Part shown: piece after piece, positions 5,260 to 53,805 of the stretch
Position numbering within the stretch: position 1 is the stretch's first letter
How the letters are laid out: the number at the start of each line of letters is the position of its first letter
NCBI GenBank assembly: GCA_039931165.1
Contig: JBDTSL010000005.1
Location: forward strand, 1-58,830
Direction of reading: 5' to 3'
Length of the DNA: 58,830 bases
Source: Candidatus Doudnabacteria bacterium
GTDB lineage: Bacteria > Patescibacteriota > Doudnabacteria > UBA920 > O2-02-FULL-48-8
Made by a program: the position numbers and the translations under genes
The notes under the pieces: model-generated
The model's input: the letters and a program-made list of their open reading frames with translations, nothing else
What the model was told of the DNA's origin: nothing
Databases searched by the model: none

Positions 5260-5336
5260 CGCATTTGCGAGGAGCGTTAGCGACGAAGCAATCTTAGATA
5301 AGATCGCCACACCTGCTTCGTAGGCTCGCGAATTCG
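5260..5336. repeat. REP-like palindrome, family A (copy 1)
   Basis: cgcatttgcgaggagcgttagcgacgaagcaatct...agatcgccac...gctcgcgaattcg. Confidence 0.85.
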
Positions 5337-18383: not shown

Positions 18384-19379
18384 TTACTGGGCAAATAAAT
18401 CTTTTGCGGCATTCCACATACCCCAATCATTGTTCTTTTTGGCCATCCAGTACCACCATTCAACCCCCCACAAATAATGCCTCGAAAGCTGGGTTGCTTT
18501 GGCATATTGAACATTGTCGGCAAAAACTTTGGGATTCATTAAAGATCTTTGGATATCCAAAGAGGTATTAAACGCCCCACCGGTAAACCACGGCTCCATC
18601 TGAAGCTCCACATCCCAGACATCCGAGGTTTTTCTGAATGTCTGCAGGAATCCGGCTTTGATGCGGTAAAAAACAGCCGGAATAGGATATTTGTAATATC
18701 CGCCGTATTTAGGGTCAAAAGAAACCCGGTAAAGAGTAGCGCCCAAAATATCCGCGCCTATTCCTGCGCTTTTAAGCCAGGAACCGCGTTCACCCGAATC
18801 GGTCACTACGATCGGGCGACTATCTATTTGTTTTACTATGTCGATTTCGTCCAAAAGCTGGTCTTCTGAACTGACGGGGCAATCAGGTCCGAAGTTAAAA
18901 AATGGCTCGTTTTCGACCTGCCACTCTTTGATGACATCAAATGTTTTGAAATGCACGGTACTTGCTCTTACGAAATCAAGGAGAGCCTGGTCCTGCTCCT
19001 GACCCGGAAGTTTTTTAACCCAATCCGGTTCGGAACATTCGGGCCATCTCGGCTGCTTGCGCCCCAAGACCAGTAAAACGCCTATGTTGTTTAGTTTCGC
19101 TTGCTCTAACTGCCAGTCAATATTCGAAAAATCATAGCTGCCTCGCGTCCGCTCAAGATCTTTCCAATACGTCATCAGTCGGAGTTTTTTAGGCTTGAGG
19201 TCCGACAGAACCTCCAAAAAAGTTTGCCTGGGATTAAATCCCAATCCCTGCGCTTCCTGATATGAAAAGGTTATTCCCCATTCGACTTTGGCTGAAGGCA
19301 TGTATCGGAAATAAAAAAACAACAAGACGGCGGCCGATAAAATCAAAAAAAATCCAAAATACTTTAAAAATTTTTTCAT
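18384..19379 (-). CDS. Membrane-anchored clan GH-A glycoside hydrolase-like protein
   Basis: N-terminal TM; GRKQPRWPEC, QVENEP, ELQMEPW, LWGVEWWY. Confidence 0.75.
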   Translation of the reverse strand: MKKFLKYFGFFLILSAAVLLFFYFRYMPSAKVEWGITFSYQEAQGLGFNPRQTFLEVLSDLKPKKLRLMTYWKDLERTRGSYDFSNIDWQLEQAKLNNIGVLLVLGRKQPRWPECSEPDWVKKLPGQEQDQALLDFVRASTVHFKTFDVIKEWQVENEPFFNFGPDCPVSSEDQLLDEIDIVKQIDSRPIVVTDSGERGSWLKSAGIGADILGATLYRVSFDPKYGGYYKYPIPAVFYRIKAGFLQTFRKTSDVWDVELQMEPWFTGGAFNTSLDIQRSLMNPKVFADNVQYAKATQLSRHYLWGVEWWYWMAKKNNDWGMWNAAKDLFAQ

Positions 19380-20269
19380 AAAGTCAGCAGGCCCAGGCCC
19401 ACCGCGATGAGTATGATCGCGATCACTTTCAGTGTGATGATTTCAAACGAAATTTTTTCTTTCAGAATCTTCGGGAAATAAACAGAAAGCAAGCTGGTCA
19501 AAATCAAAAGAAACACAAACTGCACTCCCTGCAGGCTATTGACCACGACCACCGAGCCTAATGAGACCGCGTAATTTTGCAGAAACCCGCCGATGGTCCC
19601 GCTGACCCGTGAAGAATAGTAGAGCACAACGTTCTTGACACCGGCTTGTTTCGGGGCATTGAAAATTACATCGCGGTTTTTCTTAAACAGCAGGATCGGC
19701 AGGGCGGCGACAAAAAATCCCATGCGGGTCCAGACCATGCCGGAAATAAAATTGCTGTGATTGAAAATGTATTTGGTCAGAACCGAGGTCAAAGCAAAAA
19801 AAACTGATGACAGAGCCGCGTAAAATAAAACTTTTGCCGACCAGATTCCGTGTTCTTTCCGAAATGAGATCAAAACGGTGCCGGTGACCAAAAAACCAAA
19901 AGCGACAGTGTGCATAATGCTCAATTTTTCGCCCAAAATCAGATAAGCAAAAACAAATGAAAACACCGGGATCAATCCTCCTTGGATCGGCACGACCCTG
20001 GACACGGAGCTTTTGGCGATAGCCGAATAAGAATAATAAATTCCGGCAATGAAAACTATCCCCGCAATCAGAGAAACGCCAAAATCATAGATACTCAAAA
20101 GCCTGGCCCCGAAAGGCACCAGGATCAAAGACAATGGCCCTGTGATTGCGGTGTAGAAAGCGTATGCGATAGGCTCTCTGACGACCTTGGACACCATAAA
20201 CTTATCGGCAATCCCGGTAAAGGCCAATAGAAAATAACCGCCAAGGGCTATAAATATCCAGCTAACCAT
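19376..20269 (-). CDS. EamA/DMT family transporter
   Basis: About 10 TM helices with a two-fold repeat; LILGEKLS, LKEKIS. Confidence 0.8.
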   Translation of the reverse strand: MVSWIFIALGGYFLLAFTGIADKFMVSKVVREPIAYAFYTAITGPLSLILVPFGARLLSIYDFGVSLIAGIVFIAGIYYSYSAIAKSSVSRVVPIQGGLIPVFSFVFAYLILGEKLSIMHTVAFGFLVTGTVLISFRKEHGIWSAKVLFYAALSSVFFALTSVLTKYIFNHSNFISGMVWTRMGFFVAALPILLFKKNRDVIFNAPKQAGVKNVVLYYSSRVSGTIGGFLQNYAVSLGSVVVVNSLQGVQFVFLLILTSLLSVYFPKILKEKISFEIITLKVIAIILIAVGLGLLTL

Positions 20270-21521
20270 CGATTGTCACCTCCTTTATAACTGCGGCGCT
20301 TTTTCTGACCGTTCTTTTCTGCGTCGCATAGTCAATTTCAATCAGGCCAAACCTGGGCCCAAATCCGTAAGTCCATTCATAATTATCCGTAAGGGACCAG
20401 TAGAAATATCCCCGAACATTGACGCCTTCCAAAATCGCTTTTTGGATCCACCTTAATGATTCCCGGATAAATTTTGCCCGTCGGTTGTCGGCTGCGTCAG
20501 CCAGTCCGTTCTCGGTGATATAGATCGGCAGATTATATTTCTTGAGATCGCCAAGCAAGTGATAAATCCCTTCGGGATATAAAAACCAGCCCATATCGGA
20601 ACGGGTTTCCTGCTCGCCCAGAGCCACCTGTTCGCCGGTAAAATTATTGTTCATTTCACGGTATAAATGTTTGAAATCAAATTTCACGAGGTTAAAAAAA
20701 TAGTAGTTGAGGCCGATAAAATCCATCCGTTTGCGCAATTTTCGCAAGAAATAATGATTACTGATCCAATCCGCGAAAAAAACCACAATCCGGTCAAAAA
20801 AATTATCTTTGCGGAAAGGCGCGTAAAAACTGCTATTCTTGGCAATACCGACTTTCGCGTCGGGATATGCCGATTTGATCGAATCAAAAGCCTTATTATG
20901 GGCTTGGATCAAATTCTGCAGAACTCGCCAGTAAATGAGCTTGCTTTTTTTAAACGGCGGGAACTTTGCGGCTGAATATGCCTGCTGGCAATATACCTCG
21001 GGTTCATTTAGCGTGACCCACAGATCTATTTCTCCACCCAAGTTTTGCGCCACAAACCAAGTGAAGCGGGCGAAAGCTTCGATGCCTTGTTCGGTTTCAA
21101 ATCCCCCTTTATCCGATAGCCAAGCCGGCAGTGTCCAGTGCCAAAGAGTGGCCATACGCGTCATCCCGTTTTCTTTCATCGAAACCAAAACTTTCTTGTA
21201 ATGTTCAACCGCTTCAGTGTCCCATAGGCCTTCTACCGGCTCAATTCTGGCCCATTCAATGGAGATCCTGGCCGCGGTCAGTCCTATTCCGGCCCCAAGC
21301 TTAAAGTCCTCTTCGTAGCGGTTATAATGGTCTGCCGCCTCACCAGATTTTGGCAGCTTTCCCAGCTGTTCCTCCCGCCACCAGTCGGAATTGGTATTAT
21401 TGCCTTCGGTCTGGTGAGCCGATGAAGCCGCGCCCAGCAAAAAACCCTTCGGGAAATTTACCCCCTCACCAACTGCTTTGGTGCGGGGGTGTATTTTTGT
21501 TTCCGATTTGTGGGATTCCAT
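20262..21521 (-). CDS. Glycoside hydrolase family 1 (beta-glucosidase-like)
   Basis: FPKGFLLGAASSAHQTEG, TLNEP (acid/base), ITENG (nucleophile), FGPRFGL. Confidence 0.93.
   Translation of the reverse strand: MESHKSETKIHPRTKAVGEGVNFPKGFLLGAASSAHQTEGNNTNSDWWREEQLGKLPKSGEAADHYNRYEEDFKLGAGIGLTAARISIEWARIEPVEGLWDTEAVEHYKKVLVSMKENGMTRMATLWHWTLPAWLSDKGGFETEQGIEAFARFTWFVAQNLGGEIDLWVTLNEPEVYCQQAYSAAKFPPFKKSKLIYWRVLQNLIQAHNKAFDSIKSAYPDAKVGIAKNSSFYAPFRKDNFFDRIVVFFADWISNHYFLRKLRKRMDFIGLNYYFFNLVKFDFKHLYREMNNNFTGEQVALGEQETRSDMGWFLYPEGIYHLLGDLKKYNLPIYITENGLADAADNRRAKFIRESLRWIQKAILEGVNVRGYFYWSLTDNYEWTYGFGPRFGLIEIDYATQKRTVRKSAAVIKEVTIDG
21460..21490. repeat. Minimal TIR element, family B, in frame in the GH1 N-terminus
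   Basis: accccctcacca-actgctt-tggtgcgggggt; same ends as 39909-40017 and 42251-42346. Confidence 0.75.
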
Positions 21522-21603
21522 GACCCCTTAATTATATCTGTTGACCTTAGTATAATCAAATCTCGGCCCAAAACCAGGACGGATTTTTCGGCAATTCACT
21601 TCG

Positions 21604-22104
21604 CTAGAACCCTTGTTCGTCTGCCGAAGGCCCGTAAACTTGCGGCACAGGGATATCTTTCAGGCGCATAAATACCGTCAGCTGGCCGCGGTGATGGACC
21701 AAATGCCTGACAGATGAGCCTATGTTTTCCAGTTTTGAAGAAGTGAAGAGGACCTGGCCGTTCATTTTAAGATAAAAAGTCTGCGCAAGATCAAGATCGG
21801 AAATGTTTATAAGGGCATTTTTCGCGGCTTTCATATTATCATCGAAAAATCTTGCAAGCTTCTCAGTGGAATCCGGCCTCATATGTTTAAATGCGGCGAA
21901 GTCGATCTCGCTTTCGGTGATCGCGGTCAGGATCCATCTTGGGATTTCAGCCACTATGAAAGCAAGGCTGCCCAAACTCATGGATCTGGGATGCGGTTTC
22001 CAATCCCATAATCGTTCCGGAATTCTTTCCAGGCACTTATGCGTCGCAGACGTCTCCGCTTCCAGTTCGTTTAAAAGTTGTGTGACCAATACTGTGCTGT
22101 CCAT
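21604..22104 (-). CDS. DinB family protein
   Basis: WDWKPHPRSMSLG...HLVHHRGQLTVFMRLKDIPVPQVYGPSADE; start moved to the ATG at 22104 (RBS aaggaaggaa). Confidence 0.9.
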   Translation of the reverse strand: MDSTVLVTQLLNELEAETSATHKCLERIPERLWDWKPHPRSMSLGSLAFIVAEIPRWILTAITESEIDFAAFKHMRPDSTEKLARFFDDNMKAAKNALINISDLDLAQTFYLKMNGQVLFTSSKLENIGSSVRHLVHHRGQLTVFMRLKDIPVPQVYGPSADEQGF

Positions 22105-22192
22105 ATTGTTCCTTCCTTCTCTTTCTATAAGGAATAATAGCAAACAACCGTGACATTTTCCACTCTTTGACGAAATGTGCTAAATTATCGGT

Positions 22193-23266
22193 ATGAAAAC
22201 AAAAATTTTAACGTCAATAATTTTACTATCGGTTCCGGTCTTTGCCAGCGCGGCGACTCACCCTGTTGGCACAAATGTAATTAACAACGGCACTGTTTCA
22301 ATGGTTACGGCTGACAGCCACCTGCGCCCTTACACCTCTGCCGGAGCCTTCCTATCTTATGGCTTTAATAGTTGGGCCAAAGTACCATCCGCCAACCCGG
22401 ATGACCTGGCACTTCCGACTGGTGATTTCATCCCTCCCCGCGACGGCAAGGTGATGTGTTCGGACAGAGGCGCGGACAAAGGAACCTGTTATCTGATCAC
22501 CGAAAGCAAGAGAGCTGGTTTTACAAGCAGCGACATATTCACAGGACTTGGATTTAATTTTAAATACGTCCTTACGGGCGATGTTTCCTTTCTCTCCGCG
22601 ACGCAAAATATAGACAACGCGGCACAAGCGCATCGACCCGGAACCCTGGTCAATGATGATGGAACTATTAAACTTGTAGCATCCGGCGGCAGCGTGGGCA
22701 TTCCTTCCATGGATGTTCTGGATTCCTGGGGGTACTCGCTGACAGATGTTGTAGCTGCAAATCCCGCGGACAAAACGATGACGCAGATTGATATTCTCTC
22801 CAACCGAATAGCGGGCCAGCTCGCTTTCACCCCTTCGTCTCCCTCTCCTTCCTCGCCTACACCAATATCCTATCAAACTCCATCCGGAGGGCCTTATCAG
22901 ACGCCGATACCTACCATCATCATCACAAACCCATTTACGGGTGTTCCGCGTTTATTTTTTGTAAGCACTGATCCGCAGATAGGCAAAACTCAATATGACT
23001 TTGCGATTGATTTATCAATCCCTGAAACTGTAGACGACCAGCAGGCTCAGGTTTATAGTTTCAGGTGCGTTACACCCTTAAATCCGGGCGGCATAAGTTT
23101 CCCGACAACCGGCCTTTACGCTTACGATAATCTTACAATATTAGGAAGCATATTCCCCATAGATCTGGGTCAAGGCCGCTACACATGCGAGTTCAGGTTT
23201 AAGCAAGGGACTTTTATATCAAATTCCATTAACTTTAATTTTGACGGGACAAACCTAAGTTTCTGA
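22193..23266 (+). CDS. Secreted protein with three lineage-type repeats, a Pro/Ser linker and an Ig-like C-terminus
   Basis: Signal peptide; HPVGTNVINNGTV / RDGKVM..DKGTCY / HRPGTLVNDDGTI repeats. Confidence 0.8.
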   Translation: MKTKILTSIILLSVPVFASAATHPVGTNVINNGTVSMVTADSHLRPYTSAGAFLSYGFNSWAKVPSANPDDLALPTGDFIPPRDGKVMCSDRGADKGTCYLITESKRAGFTSSDIFTGLGFNFKYVLTGDVSFLSATQNIDNAAQAHRPGTLVNDDGTIKLVASGGSVGIPSMDVLDSWGYSLTDVVAANPADKTMTQIDILSNRIAGQLAFTPSSPSPSSPTPISYQTPSGGPYQTPIPTIIITNPFTGVPRLFFVSTDPQIGKTQYDFAIDLSIPETVDDQQAQVYSFRCVTPLNPGGISFPTTGLYAYDNLTILGSIFPIDLGQGRYTCEFRFKQGTFISNSINFNFDGTNLSF

Positions 23267-23359
23267 TTGACAAACGGCGCAAAATAGGTAATAGTAAAAT
23301 TGTGAATAAGTGATTTCAGTCCATATTAAGGGCTTTTTAAAGCATTTTGAGGCAAATAT

Positions 23360-25417
23360 ATGAAAAAGACTCTATTTATAGCAATCTCATCAATCCTGAT
23401 TTTCCTCCCTAATGCCCGGTCTTCGGCATCAGGCGTTTTATCTTTGAGCCAAAACAATGTCACATTAAGCCCGGGACAAACCACTACCGTAACCGCATAT
23501 CCGCCAGCCGGGCAAATCGCCAACGTGACCTCCATAACCAATTCCACCGGAGTATCTGCCACTGTTGGCAACAACGTTATCACTATCAACGCCCTAAATT
23601 CTGGCGTTTCCGGCATCTCTCAGATAAGTGTCTGCACCTTTGACAGCACATGCGGCACAATTAACGTCACGGTTGCCAGCGGCTTCAACAATAATTGTTA
23701 TAACTGCAATAATTACAACAATTACGGCCAACTGACTTTTAGCCAAAACAATATCAGTCTTGGCGCTAATCAAACTATGACTGTCAGTGTCTTCAATACA
23801 AACTCCGGTTCCATCTACATTTCCAGCAATTCCAATCCCGGGATAGTCAGTGCTTTTGTTTCCGGCAGTGTGATAAATCTCTCAGGGTTAAGTTATGGAT
23901 CGAGCACGGTCACCGTTTGCGGCTCATTCGGCCAGTGCGGATATTTATACGTAACCGTCAGTTCTTCGTCCGGAGGCTTGCTGAGTATAAGTCCGAGCAG
24001 TCTCAATCTCGCAATCAATCAAACCAGCACGGTTTATGTTTCAGGCACAAACAATGGATCGGTTTACATCTCGAACAATACCAATTCGAATATTGTCACC
24101 GCAAACATAATCGGTTCCGCGATTAACCTGACCGGCATTAATTTCGGCAGCGCCACTCTGACTGTTTGTGCTTCAAATTCTCAATGCGCTTCTCTGTATG
24201 TCTCTGTCAATACTGGCAACAATAATTCCGGCCTGCTCTCATTCAGCCAAAATAACATCAATCTAACGATCAGCCAAACGATGTCAGTTAGTGTTTACAA
24301 CACAAATTTCAGTTCCATCTACATTTCCAGTAATTCCAATTCCGGCGTGGTCACGGCGTACGTTTCCGGCAGCAGTATCAATCTCACAGGTATCAACAAC
24401 GGCTCAAGCACCATTACGGTCTGCAGCTCCAACGCCGCTTGCAACTACTTATATGTTACCGTCGGCGGGTACAATAATAACAACGGCCAGATAAGCCTCA
24501 GCCCGAGCTATGTGAACATGAACATCGGGGATTATTCCAACGTCACGGTCTACAGTACCAACGCGACGAATTTGTATATTTCCAGCAATTCCAATCCCTC
24601 CGCCGTGTCGGCCGTTGTTTCCGGCAACCTGATGAGCCTGCATGCCCTGAATTCCGGCAGCTCGGTTATTTCCGTCTGCTCTTATAATTTCGGACAATGC
24701 GCGAATCTAAGCGTCACAGTCGGCGGTTCGGGCTTCAACAATTTCTCAAATATTACTTTTAGCCAAAATTCCGTTGCTCTCAATACAGGCCAGAGCATGA
24801 CGGTTTCGATTTATTCCGGCAATTCATATACAAACGCAAACTCTTATTACATCTCAAGTAACTCCAATTACTCCGCGGCTTTGGCTACCGTGAACGGCAA
24901 CTCTCTGTTTTTAACCGGACAAAATACCGGAACTTCTACGATTAACGTATGTCAGACCGGTAACGGTTGCGGCACGATTACGGTCACGGTCAATTCAACT
25001 TATCCTAACGGCACCGGCGCGGTTTTGGGCTCAAACGTATATAATAACGGAACGCTGATAAACGACAACGGTACAATTTACATCACTTACAAGAATACCA
25101 AAAGCGCGTTTGCCACCGCGACCGCATTTACCGGGATGGGATTCAGCTTCGGCAACACGATCAATGCTTCAACCGTAAATTTAAATTATTCCGGCTACAC
25201 CATCGGCAGTCCGTTTATCGCCCATCCTTGGGGCAGCTGGCTAAAAAATGGCCAAACAGTTTACTTCGCTGACAGCACCGGTTTGATTCCGATTGCCAGT
25301 ATGAATGATTTCACTGCCAATGGCGGCAGTCTGAACATGGTGGTCAATGCCAATAGCTACGACCTCGCAAGGCCAATTCAACCCGTGATGACACCGAGTG
25401 ATCCAAGGTTAAGATAA
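23360..25417 (+). CDS. Secreted Asn/Ser-rich surface protein with six Ig-like repeats and two C-terminal lineage-type repeats
   Basis: Signal peptide; six ~85-aa units each ending VC-x5/6-C-xxxxV(T/S)V. Confidence 0.85.
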   Translation: MKKTLFIAISSILIFLPNARSSASGVLSLSQNNVTLSPGQTTTVTAYPPAGQIANVTSITNSTGVSATVGNNVITINALNSGVSGISQISVCTFDSTCGTINVTVASGFNNNCYNCNNYNNYGQLTFSQNNISLGANQTMTVSVFNTNSGSIYISSNSNPGIVSAFVSGSVINLSGLSYGSSTVTVCGSFGQCGYLYVTVSSSSGGLLSISPSSLNLAINQTSTVYVSGTNNGSVYISNNTNSNIVTANIIGSAINLTGINFGSATLTVCASNSQCASLYVSVNTGNNNSGLLSFSQNNINLTISQTMSVSVYNTNFSSIYISSNSNSGVVTAYVSGSSINLTGINNGSSTITVCSSNAACNYLYVTVGGYNNNNGQISLSPSYVNMNIGDYSNVTVYSTNATNLYISSNSNPSAVSAVVSGNLMSLHALNSGSSVISVCSYNFGQCANLSVTVGGSGFNNFSNITFSQNSVALNTGQSMTVSIYSGNSYTNANSYYISSNSNYSAALATVNGNSLFLTGQNTGTSTINVCQTGNGCGTITVTVNSTYPNGTGAVLGSNVYNNGTLINDNGTIYITYKNTKSAFATATAFTGMGFSFGNTINASTVNLNYSGYTIGSPFIAHPWGSWLKNGQTVYFADSTGLIPIASMNDFTANGGSLNMVVNANSYDLARPIQPVMTPSDPRLR

Positions 25418-25436
25418 ATATAGATAAGAATTTTTT

Positions 25437-25570
25437 TTGGTGACCCCACCGGGAATCGGTTCGCCGCTTAAGCGGCTCAAACCCGGGGCAGCGACGAATG
25501 CTACGAGCGCTCGCATTCGTCGTCGTTCGGCTACGGCATAGGCCTTGCCTCACTTCTGCCCTTCGATTCC
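25437..25570 (-). mobile_element. tRNA-linked structured mini-element (tRNA-Glu copy)
   Basis: 22-bp direct repeat of the tRNA 3' end (25437-25458 = 25594-25615); inverted T-loop copy at 25562-25570; 103-nt core homologous to 48939-49042. Confidence 0.75.
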
Positions 25571-25594
25571 GCTTAGTATGCAATATGTAATTCT

Positions 25595-25669
25595 TGGTGA
25601 CCCCACCGGGAATCGAACCCGGATTCTAGCGTTGAGAACGCTATGTCCTAACCGTTAGACGATAGGGCC
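25595..25669 (-). tRNA. tRNA-Glu (CTC)
   Basis: Cloverleaf; anticodon loop TT-CTC-AA; GGTTCGATTCC; encoded CCA; TTGAAT-17-TATAAT promoter at 25683-25711. Confidence 0.95.
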
Positions 25670-48587: not shown

Positions 48588-48661
48588 GCCCCCTTAGTTC
48601 AGTGGTAGAACAACAGTTTTGTAAACTGTAGGCGGTAGTTCGATTCTACCCGGGGGCTCCA
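48588..48661 (+). tRNA. tRNA-Thr (TGT)
   Basis: acagt-TT-TGT-AA-actgt arm; GTTCGATTC; encoded CCA; one acceptor-stem mismatch at 7-66. Confidence 0.88.
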
Positions 48662-48679
48662 GTAAGGTTTCAGTAAGTA

Positions 48680-48790
48680 CAAAATCAAATGCCGCGGAGG
48701 GTTAGGCAAGCATTTGATTTTGAGAGGAGCAACGCAGAAACCGTAGCGGCCTTGAATTGACGAAAGGACGCGAAGGTTTCGCAGTTGCGA
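48680..48790 (+). other. Structured spacer between tRNA-Thr and tRNA-Tyr
   Basis: 13-bp stem caaaatcaaatgc/gcatttgattttg plus an irregular hairpin gcaac..gaaacc..gcg..cctt/aagg..cgc..ggtttc..gttgc. Confidence 0.55.
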
Positions 48791-48795
48791 CGAGA

Positions 48796-48882
48796 GGGCA
48801 GGTAGCGAAGTGGTCAAACGCGGCTGACTGTAAATCAGCTGGCCTTGCGCCTTCATAGGTTCGAATCCTATCCTGCCCACCA
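48796..48882 (+). tRNA. tRNA-Tyr (GTA)
   Basis: gctga-CT-GTA-AA-tcagc arm; long variable arm; GGTTCGAATCC; encoded CCA. Confidence 0.95.
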
Positions 48883-48922
48883 GAAAAAAACTTTTGGCTT
48901 TTTGCCAAAGGTTTTTTTCTTT

Positions 48923-49071
48923 AGGATAGGATTCGAACGGGCAGCAGCGAGACGAGGCATCAGCCGAAGTCGAGCGCCGATGAAAGCGAGCGCTCGCAGC
49001 TTTCAGCGCTGCCCCGTACATGAGCGCATCAGCGCGAATCGAGAATCCTATCCTGCCCACCAGAAAAAAAC
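48923..49071 (+). mobile_element. tRNA-linked structured mini-element (tRNA-Tyr copy)
   Basis: 16-nt inverted copy of the T arm (48923-48938); 104-nt core; 29-bp direct repeat 49043-49071 = 48863-48891; terminator hairpins on both sides. Confidence 0.8.
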
Positions 49072-49114
49072 CTTCATCTTCTGATGAAGGTTTTTTTATT
49101 CCACTTACTATTTT

Positions 49115-51850: not shown

Positions 51851-52906
51851 ATGGAACTTCAATATAACCACATAAAAAAAGAATACGACCAGATCCAGGA
51901 TTTACTTTCCAAAACCACTGACCCCAAGAAGTTGGCTACTTTAGGGAAAAAACAATCCGAGCTTTTGCCTATGGTGGAAAAAATCAACCATTTGGGAACG
52001 ACCAAGACCCAGATCGCCGAACACGAAAAAATGATAGCCGATAAATCGGAACTGGCTGACATGGCAGCCGCGGAGTTACCTGCTTTGCAGGCAGAGCGCG
52101 ATAAACTGACAGAGGAACTTCGGGTCGCAATGCTGCCCAGAGATCCATATGACGAAAAAAATATCATCGTCGAGATCAGGGCCGGCGCCGGCGGCGATGA
52201 AGCCGGATTGTTTGCCGCCGAGCTTTTTCGTATGTATTCAAAGTATGCCGAGAAGCTCAAATACAAAGTTGCGGTCCTCAGTTCGAGCAAGACATCAATT
52301 GGCGGATTCAAGGAAATTATTTTCGAGATACTCGGCCGCAAGGCATACTCTAAATTGAAATACGAATCCGGAGTCCATCGCGTGCAGAGAGTTCCGGAAA
52401 CAGAAAAGTCCGGCCGAGTGCATACCTCTACCGCGACCGTGGCCGTCATGCCAGAAATAGAAGAGGCTGATTTTAAGATCGATCCTAAGGATATAAAAAT
52501 GGAAGCGACTACCGCCTCGGGTCATGGCGGGCAGTCGGTCAACACAACTTATTCCGCGGTAAGAATGACCCATCTTCCGACAGGCATCATGGTCGTGATG
52601 CAGGATGAACGCTCTCAGGCCCAGAACCGTGAAAAAGCCATGGATGTCCTGAGAGCCCGGGTTTTGGCCTTGGAAGAAGAACGCAAACGCAAAGAATTAA
52701 GCGACAAGCGGAAATCGCAGATCGGCACCGGCGACAGATCTGAAAAGATCCGGACCTATAACTTTCCTCAGGACCGCATCACCGACCACCGCATTAACCA
52801 AAATTTCAGCCAGATCCAAACGATCATGGACGGCGGCCTCGGCCAGATCACGGACGCTATGATCGCCGAAGATCAGAAGCGCCAGCTTGAAGAAATCGCC
52901 AAATGA
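51851..52906 (+). CDS. prfA: Peptide chain release factor 1
   Basis: [15 protein letters not shown] (PxT), GHGGQSVN (GGQ), [10 protein letters not shown]. Confidence 0.96.
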
Positions 52907-53805
52907 CCATCCGAGAACTATTGAACAAGGCAGAAAAAAAACTGCCAAAAAGCACTTCCCCGAATTTAGACGCGGAAGTGCTTTTGTCGCATGTGCTTGA
53001 TAAGCCCAAAACATATTTGCTTGCCAATCCAAACGATCAAATTTCGCCGAAAACCGAAAAGCAATTTTCGACCCTGGTTGCCCGCAGGCAATCCGGCTGG
53101 CCAGTTCCATATATCACTAACCAAAAAGAATTTTACGGGCGCAAATTCTTTGTGGACAAAAATGTCCTCATTCCCCGCCCGGAAACTGAAGAGCTGGTCG
53201 AATTGGCAATAAAAACTTTAAAGAATAAAAAGAATCTGAAAATTTTGGATATAGGCACCGGCTCGGGGAATATTATTATCTCGCTCGCAAGAAATCTGGA
53301 ATCTAATACCATTGCGAGGAGCGAAGCGACGAAGCAATCTAATCCAAGATCGCCACGCGGCCTCCGGCCGCTCGCGATGGTAAATCTATATTTCGCATCA
53401 GACACTTCAAAAGCCGCACTTAAAGTCGCTAAAAAAAACGCCAAACTCCACAAAACATCTATTCTGTTCAAACAGTCGGACATTTTAAAAGGTTGGAAAG
53501 ATCAGAGCTTCGACGTAATAATTGCCAATCTGCCATATTTGGAAAAAGAAACCGACTCAAGCACAAAATTTGAGCCTAAAACCGCTTTGATCGCAAAGAA
53601 AAAAGGCTTAGCGCTTTACGAAGACCTCTTTACCCAAGTCTCCACCCTCTCCCCTCAACCTTCTACCCTCTTTCTCGAAATCGGCCATGACCAGGGCAAA
53701 CAAATAAAAAAACTGGCAGCAAGATTGCTCCCAGCTTTTGAAACCAAAATTTATAAGGATTTATCCAAATTTGACCGGTACGCCATGCTCAAATCCCAAA
53801 CTTAG
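52903..53805 (+). CDS. prmC: Release factor glutamine methyltransferase with an in-frame palindrome insertion
   Basis: [24 protein letters not shown]; follows prfA. Confidence 0.95.
53308..53381 (+). repeat. REP-like palindrome, family A (copy 5), coding and in frame
   Basis: accattgcgag-gagcgaagcgacgaagcaatct...agatcgccacg...ctcgcgatggt; encodes [25 protein letters not shown]. Confidence 0.9.

Follow-up and report, generated by a model that had tools for sequence, protein, structure and literature searches.

Behind the tRNA-Glu and the tRNA-Tyr gene of a 58,830 nt (58.8 kb) stretch of DNA from Candidatus Doudnabacteria (CPR/Patescibacteria), in the following called the window, we find a unit of some 160-180 bp that holds no gene and in both places comprises an inverted copy of a part of the tRNA gene, a structured core and a second copy of the tRNA 3′ end. 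The element has a defined anatomy and a conserved fold, is patchily present among related genomes, accretes in tandem and uses at least two tRNA species. Judging from these sequence features we tentatively favour the reading that it is a non-coding, non-autonomous miniature integrative element which targets tRNA genes and is little more than an attP site, a reading that we rate as nearly, if not quite, probable. No description of such an element was found in the literature searched or in Rfam.

Anatomy of the element

The tRNA-Glu(CTC) gene of the window is intact (25595-25669, minus strand; ARAGORN, and 60.3 bits with the Rfam tRNA model) and is preceded on its 5′ side by a promoter-like TTGAAT-17-TATAAT sequence (25711-25683). 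Its 3′ end, from about tRNA position 56 to position 76 plus one nucleotide, forms the first copy of a direct repeat, cgattcccggtggggtcaccaa (25594-25615, minus strand). The second copy (25437-25458, minus strand) is a displaced tRNA-Glu 3′ end which extends from the T loop to the CCA plus an A and is identical in 22 of 22 positions; judged by shuffles, no such pair is expected by chance. Between the two, all on the minus strand, lie a spacer (25571-25593, read from the sequence; 24 nt when counted from 25594), for which a scan called neither a terminator nor a promoter, the 9-nt inverted T-loop copy ggaatcgaa (25562-25570), which is the reverse complement of TTCGATTCC from the T loop and T stem, and the structured core of 103 nt (25459-25561; 151 bits with our covariance model). 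The core has a GC content of 58% versus 45.7% for the window. The sequence ggaatcgaa is the 5′ strand of a helix, P1, whose partner is the start of repeat copy 2, the first 7 nt of this copy being the 3′ strand. Inside the core helix P2 (25556-25561 with 25486-25491) encloses the nested hairpin P3 (about 25532-25554), and P4 (25492-25522) and P5 (25463-25476) follow. The 9-nt inverted copy is generic T-loop sequence and not specific for this tRNA. A sequence-only reading had proposed the order tRNA, 24-nt spacer, 9-nt inverted copy, 103-nt core and 22-nt repeat, and this order is exact to the base. It had also placed the end of the neighbouring surface-protein genes just past the repeat, and indeed the open reading frame 23360-25417 stops 20 nt beyond the distal repeat.

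The second copy is found 23 kb away on the plus strand. Here the target gene is the intact tRNA-Tyr(GTA) gene (48796-48882; ARAGORN and Rfam). The first repeat copy, GAATCCTATCCTGCCCACCAGAAAAAAA (48863-48890), is followed by a terminator-like hairpin with a T-run between tRNA-Tyr and element (48891-48922; seen in the sequence and by a terminator scan), an inverted copy of 16 nt, AGGATAGGATTCGAAC (48923-48938; read from the sequence, the hairpin being detected as well), and the structured core with P2-P5 (48939-49042; 104 nt counted from GGGCAG; 156.5 bits with the covariance model). Only 4 nt separate the T-run of the terminator from the inverted copy. The direct-repeat search found the second repeat copy at 49043-49070 with all 28 nt identical, none being expected by chance, and a second, different terminator hairpin follows this copy (49071-49099). 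The entire Tyr repeat thus comprises 55 nt with 80% identity, and its pattern is peculiar: 28 nt are identical, the terminator stem is divergent and the T-run is identical again. This pattern speaks for an insert that came with a tRNA end and a terminator of its own, as fragments borne by an attP do, and against a target-site duplication. The sequence AGGATAGGATTCGAAC can pair with tRNA-Tyr from the T loop through the 3′ strand of the T stem into the acceptor stem, of whose 3′ strand it takes in the first 3 nt; it covers seven tRNA-Tyr-specific bases and is the only tRNA-specific inverted copy of the two in the window. Promoter-like sites were called only upstream of the tRNA genes and in none of the spacers.

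Over P2-P4 the cores of the Glu and Tyr copies share 78% identity and show compensatory changes, and a 31-nt degenerate core pattern has exactly two matches in the window, whereas none is expected by chance. The claim that the Tyr site repeats the architecture and the core length of the Glu site on an unrelated target is borne out: the layout is the same and the cores measure 104 and 103 nt.

Fold of the core

Compared with shuffled sequences the fold has a z of -3.9 for the Glu and -5.2 for the Tyr copy. Together with a third copy described below the two allow a consensus, in which the inverted copy has the start of repeat copy 2 as its partner in P1, P2 is invariant (GGGCAG/CUGCCC), P3 is a nested hairpin, P4 a long hairpin and P5 a short one. 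Pairing holds for 97% of the cells of the three-copy alignment, and in 10 of 34 pairs both sides have changed in a compensatory way; 0 of 500 shuffles match this, and slid-alignment controls reach only 29-42% pairing. These statistics come from few sequences, the whole evidence base being three full copies and one homologue at the level of an open reading frame. Unpaired nucleotides are conserved as well. U-G wobbles lie on the tRNA-sense strand; the gap in folding energy between sense and antisense is too small to pick a strand.

In every copy P1 stops right at position 56/57, the boundary of the repeat. Since the inverted copy spans this boundary, it pairs better with the T arm of the tRNA itself than with repeat copy 2. 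In the third copy P1 is weak, with an A-C mismatch, and the minimum free energy (MFE) structure leaves it unformed. When tRNA-Glu and element are folded as a single RNA (25430-25669 in the window; 3378-3600 in L126, the locus of the third copy), the MFE structure joins the distal repeat to the 5′ acceptor strand of the tRNA and the T loop of this tRNA to the inverted copy, which amounts to an alternative tRNA with a T-loop insertion of about 157 nt.

A search of Rfam 15, including self-cleaving ribozymes, tmRNA and tRNA-like RNAs, scored only the tRNAs, all other families staying far below threshold. Known ribozymes, tmRNA, retrons and T-boxes were considered and, in view of the Rfam results and the anatomy, rejected.

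Further copies

Loci of related genomes were reached by way of the MurF and EF-Ts homologues. A third full copy is present behind tRNA-Glu(CTC) in L126, L128 and L129 (Logan SRR26786844, SRR26786849 and SRR26786847), which represent one lineage with a MurF 73-74% identical to that of the window. This copy begins 1 nt past the CCA, has a core of 102 nt and ends in a 21-nt repeat that agrees with its own tRNA in 20 of 21 positions. At a distance of 21 nt beyond it there is a decayed tandem copy, internally deleted and with a degenerate repeat, so that the intact copy adjoins the tRNA and the deleted one is distal. The core start of the remnant, AAGTGAGGCAAG, matches the Glu copy of the window in 12 of 12 and the neighbouring full copy in 10 of 12 positions. 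Neither in the window nor in the L126 lineage is tRNA-Glu separated from the element by a terminator.

A fourth homologue was detected at the protein level by an exhaustive HMMER profile search of JGI/ENA metagenomes for which the open reading frame of the element was the query, namely one family of spurious 88-aa open reading frames (P0241/P0242, encoded on six contigs; E = 6.7e-7; 65% identity over 46 aa with the Tyr copy). The sequence past its core is unlike both the Glu and the Tyr repeat, which suggests a third target tRNA.

The covariance model made from the three copies detected nothing further, whether in the window with its three other tRNA genes or in the about 300 kb of loci from relatives; in this model (R1), which gives its own three copies 142-157 bits, P1 and P5 have their 3′ strands placed one column off. 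The genome collection was searched with the pattern GGGCAG..GCGAGCGCTCG..CTGCCCC, and the matches listed are by chance the antisense of a conserved tRNA-Phe of the Geodermatophilaceae. This tRNA-Phe (L001-L080, e.g., L012 3957-4032) is a coincidental trap for core pattern searches. A P4-loop pattern scan of metagenomes yielded two matches in GC-rich coding DNA, which we attribute to chance. The GAGCGCTC loop is not conserved in the third copy, and both the genome and the metagenome pattern were therefore too strict. Three pattern scans of viral contigs gave either nothing or matches which did not hold up against the covariance model; in the phage and plasmid collections blastn in distant mode was without a match, and the translated element retrieved nothing in a word-indexed protein search.

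Presence and absence at the two tRNA genes

Behind tRNA-Glu the window and the L126 lineage carry the element. The site is empty, without any remnant, in L122 (GCA_037200925.1; MurF 73% identical) and in L124/L125 (68%). Among the relatives compared the site behind tRNA-Tyr is filled in the window only and is empty in L141, L147, L148/L149 and L152. The most telling case is L152, in which the tRNA-Thr/Tyr orientation is inverted as in the window and the flanks are homologous. Precise empty sites thus stand beside filled ones, a presence/absence polymorphism as compared between lineages. The sequence-only reading would have been contradicted by a lack of empty sites among relatives; we looked for them, and they exist at both tRNA genes.

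According to the MurF identities the window lies outside the group which holds both L122 (empty) and L126 (filled), and this implies either two gains at tRNA-Glu or one gain and a precise loss. The least similar pair of cores is the one sharing a target, Glu of the window and Glu of L126 (58-66% identity), while Tyr of the window and Glu of L126 are 69-75% identical. The similarity of the cores does not track the insertion site. The repeats, in turn, match the resident tRNA (22/22, 28/28 and 20/21), and the tRNA-Glu 3′ ends differ between the lineages at three positions. The proposal that the two window copies go back to independent insertions and not to a segmental duplication is supported by the empty sites, by the tandem copy in L126 and by a core similarity that is not tied to the site.

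In L137 and L138 the 13-mer of the left end, GGGATTCGAACGGG, is all that remains of the element (L137 11858-11873; same place in L138). In L137 it is situated about 15 nt past the tRNA-Tyr terminator and abuts the end of a gene for 468 aa. This lone 13-mer is probably a decayed copy.

With respect to tsf-TPR the pair tRNA-Thr(TGT)/tRNA-Tyr has an inverted orientation in the window (48588-49099) and in L152, and it is co-oriented in L137, L141, L144, L147 and L148. A link between this inversion and the element was considered and rejected, as L152 has the inversion without the element. A different element, a GC-rich long palindrome of about 240 nt, lies 3′ of tRNA-Tyr in L147 (5663-5898; GACTTCGCCTT...AAGGCGAAGTC); it lacks a repeat of the tRNA end and does not match the covariance model.

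Gene surroundings

The nearest homologues of the MurF and EF-Ts proteins of the window belong to Candidatus Doudnabacteria; an exact look-up of the MurF sequence retrieved no entry. Housekeeping genes in the window include rmlABCD-type sugar genes, lgt, an asnS/aspS-type synthetase and scpAB, and also mraZ-rsmH-ftsL-ftsI-murF, rplJL, rpsB-tsf, rpmE-prfA-prmC and ftsW. A Pfam domain analysis of the 58.8-kb window revealed no recombinase domain and, specifically, no integrase, no excisionase-integrase pair, no transposase and no reverse transcriptase; none of these four was seen beside the element copy in L126 either.

The stretch 3′ of tRNA-Glu (18384-25417 in the window) is a variable hot spot among the relatives (L122, L124 and a JGI contig): between tRNA-Glu and the GH1/EamA/ScpAB genes the gene content differs from relative to relative. 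In the window two secreted proteins rich in repeats are encoded here (22193-23266 and 23360-25417); their internal repeats measure about 250 and 504 nt.

The tRNA genes of this group are also associated with a second structured family of about 110-135 nt, situated in the 5′ leader and ending with ...GCGACGAG directly at tRNA +1. It has the conserved motifs GAGAGGAGCA, CCGUAGCG and GCGAAG as well as nested helices, and over six copies 10 of 16 pairs are compensatory (window 48662-48795; L141 2533-2644 and 2719-2853; L137 11586-11723; L122 11300-11437; L126 3240-3377). Depending on the genome it precedes tRNA-Tyr, tRNA-Thr(TGT) or tRNA-Glu. Its distribution is patchy, as it is missing before tRNA-Glu of the window, in L152 and in L148, and it has no match in Rfam. 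Finally, the window contains two copies of a GC-rich hairpin repeat (5264-5333 and 53310-53379; TTGCGAGGAGCG..GCGACGAAGCAATCT...AGATCGCCAC...CTCGCGA), one intergenic and the other in frame inside the prmC open reading frame (52903-53805), where it can be read as protein sequence.

Interpretation

It has been shown that islands inserted by tyrosine integrases leave an intact tRNA gene together with a displaced 3′ tRNA gene fragment, and that the crossover subsites used are the anticodon loop, the T loop and the junction of T stem and acceptor stem (PMC4383910). All three full copies of our element have the intact tRNA gene followed by a co-oriented 3′ fragment which extends from the T loop to past the CCA, and in each of them it is at C56/G57 of the T loop that the repeat identity sets in. 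The fragment signature, an identity block starting within the T loop, empty sites and accretion in tandem are all hallmarks of such islands, and we therefore favour a miniature integrative element. Its free form would be a small circle which carries a copy of the target tRNA 3′ end from T-loop position 56/57 through the CCA (in the Tyr case plus the terminator), a short spacer, the inverted copy of the T-loop region and the strand-specifically folded core of 103 nt. A recombinase encoded elsewhere and acting in trans would carry out site-specific recombination at T-loop position 56/57. In this way tRNA(1-56) would be joined to the 3′ fragment borne by the element, the tRNA would remain intact, and the original 3′ fragment of the host would be pushed to the far side, where it would now be seen as repeat copy 2. 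P1, closed by the core, might give a folded single strand that mimics a duplex target in the manner of an integron attC or the CTXphi attP(+) hairpin. Inverted copy, fragment and core probably form together a folded-strand recombination site, and the long tRNA-specific inverted copy of the Tyr site could stem from template-switch correction of a quasipalindrome. We infer, then, recombination as the route of insertion, an enzyme acting in trans and a fold which acts as DNA. Some points count against this reading. The window and the surroundings of the L126 copy are devoid of integrase, transposase and reverse transcriptase domains, P1 is weak in the L126 copy, and neither a circle junction nor a polymorphism between strains was observed. 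A usual attP comprises about 250 bp (PMC4383910), so that the unit of 135-180 bp is smaller than a typical attP, and the DNA circle would be very small. To find one core family on different tRNA 3′ fragments calls for a retargeting step, which we can only hypothesise. Moreover, helices backed by covariation are unusual for a double-stranded attP, and an RNA explains them equally well.

Such an RNA is the main rival, a possibility that we take seriously even though we consider it unlikely: the element could be a structured non-coding RNA in the tRNA 3′ trailer, co-transcribed with the tRNA, with a functional core and only a secondary spread to other tRNA genes. Its terminal tRNA 3′ half would supply the RNA with a CCA end like that of a tRNA, or it would be a competitor of the tRNA's T arm in pairing with the inverted copy, with a role in processing, in stability or as a decoy. 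The covariation is strong and strand specific, with the U-G pairs on the tRNA-sense strand, the unpaired nucleotides are conserved, and the element always has the orientation of the tRNA and in L126 starts 1 nt past its CCA. That in both lineages no terminator separates tRNA-Glu from the element and that repeat copy 2 is the partner of the 5′ acceptor strand of the tRNA in the MFE structure of the whole transcript also fits an RNA, and functional constraint would explain why the repeat stays identical to the resident tRNA. The Tyr element, however, comes after a terminator-like hairpin and T-run with a gap of 4 nt and no promoter in the spacer, which makes a weak case for an RNA gene, and no Rfam family matches. 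It also speaks against an RNA that the element is missing at the same tRNA genes in close relatives and at three of the five tRNA genes of the window and is thus dispensable, and that the decayed tandem copy resembles the turnover of mobile elements. Nor does an RNA role alone account for the origin of new copies with matching repeats.

The inverted copy might be a guide that pairs with the tRNA gene or pre-tRNA up to the insertion point, with the core as the active part, either ribozyme-like or as a module that recruits a recombinase; we regard such a self-targeting structured nucleic acid, in its logic comparable to bridge RNA or to the exon-binding sites of group II introns, as rather improbable. 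A quite improbable scenario is a transposon- or retroelement-like insertion with a long target-site duplication, where inverted copy and core are the element, an RNA or ssDNA is the intermediate, the inverted copy guides to the T loop and the 21-28-nt repeat arises by staggered cleavage or target-primed copying. In line with this, each repeat has the sequence of the local tRNA, the complementarity of the inverted copy to its target spans the insertion point, with P1 ending exactly at the repeat boundary in all copies, and the complementary segment of the Tyr copy is tRNA specific over 16 nt. On the other hand, the identical-divergent-identical pattern of the 55-nt Tyr repeat is unlike a fresh duplication followed by decay, duplications of 21-28 bp far exceed those of bacterial DDE transposons, and the spacer lengths vary (1, 24 and 40 nt). 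Conserved terminal inverted repeats and poly-A are lacking, as are a reverse transcriptase and a transposase in the window, and there is neither a match to an intron family nor an A-run before repeat copy 2. The copies could also be independent deletion remnants of integrase-bearing islands or prophages of which only the attL- and attR-proximal arms are left. The signature of tRNA gene plus fragment, the variable hot spot 3′ of tRNA-Glu and the decay documented by the 13-nt left-end remnant of L137 agree with such an origin. We consider it very improbable, because three copies at two tRNA genes in two lineages share their boundaries and a core of 102-104 nt with a structurally constrained interior; deletions that occurred independently would not arrive at one architecture, and the spread of a single derivative leads back to the favoured reading. 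Replication slippage, lastly, can make short direct repeats beside tRNA genes, and if the tRNA 3′ end had been duplicated locally in tandem, or if the likeness were due to chance, no element would be needed at all. We give this hardly any weight, as it is already contradicted by the same 103-nt core at two unrelated tRNA genes 23 kb apart and in another genome; by chance none is expected.

If the element is indeed a miniature integrative element, it would be among the smallest site-specific integrative elements proposed, and this in the reduced genomes of CPR bacteria (Candidatus Doudnabacteria). Integrases would then have parasites of the size of an attP, as transposases have MITEs, and a tRNA-targeting recombinase would still have to be found in Doudnabacteria. 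One core on different tRNA ends would be a natural experiment on the change of integration specificity. If instead the core acts as RNA, it would be a new structured RNA family on tRNA transcripts, and if the guide reading were true, it would represent a new class of small tRNA-homing elements with reprogrammable specificity. For annotation it matters that displaced tRNA fragments can be miscalled and that the repeats may break assemblies at tRNA loci.

Comparison with known systems

With tRNA gene islands the element shares what has been used as the 'Islander' signature, an intact tRNA gene and a co-oriented 3′ fragment from the T-loop/T-stem subsite, and also the restoration of the gene by a fragment borne by the element, the tandem arrays and the empty sites in relatives (PMC4383910). 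It differs from them in its size of 135-180 bp versus at least 2 kb, in having neither an integrase gene nor any open reading frame between tRNA gene and fragment, and in possessing a folded core supported by covariation, with one core family on different tRNA fragments.

CIMEs, known from the ICESt1/ICESt3 literature, are flanked by att sites, are kilobases long and carry genes. Like these our element has att-type flanking repeats, lacks recombination genes of its own and is presumed to be mobilised in trans, but a conserved structured core and an inverted copy of the target are not found in CIMEs.

The attC sites of integrons, including those of cassettes without an open reading frame, and the attP(+) of CTXphi are recombination sites of folded single strands, with an imperfect hairpin in the case of attC, and in them structure is conserved over sequence. 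If its fold acts as DNA, the element would resemble them by a strand-specific hairpin with a stem that imitates a duplex partner. Units without a protein gene exist there too, and integrated CTXphi has a topology like that of the element, with an inverted copy of the site, a spacer of about 100 nt and a hybrid site. In contrast to attC, where R′′ and R′ read RYYYAAC and GTTRRRY, the corresponding sequences ATCGAAC and GTTCGAT agree in 6 of 7 positions each, and the repeat boundary GTTC|GA is 3 nt away from the G|TT crossover of attC. The target of the element is the T loop of a tRNA and not attI or dif, and no IntI was found.

MITEs and the PATEs derived from IS200/IS605 are, like the element, small, non-coding, GC rich, hairpin forming and dispersed. 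A PATE of the IS200/IS605 type inserts 3′ of a tetra- or pentanucleotide without duplicating the target. The terminal inverted segments of our element, however, are derived from the target and differ from copy to copy (9 versus 16 nt), its repeat measures 21-28 bp compared to 2-10 bp in MITEs and none in IS200/IS605, and it has a specific target, the T loop of a tRNA gene. To sum up, the features compared do not place the element among the MITEs, the attC sites or the IS200/IS605 derivatives, and the lack of an integrase and the small size set it apart from the islands; it is nevertheless the islands which it most resembles in the way it works.
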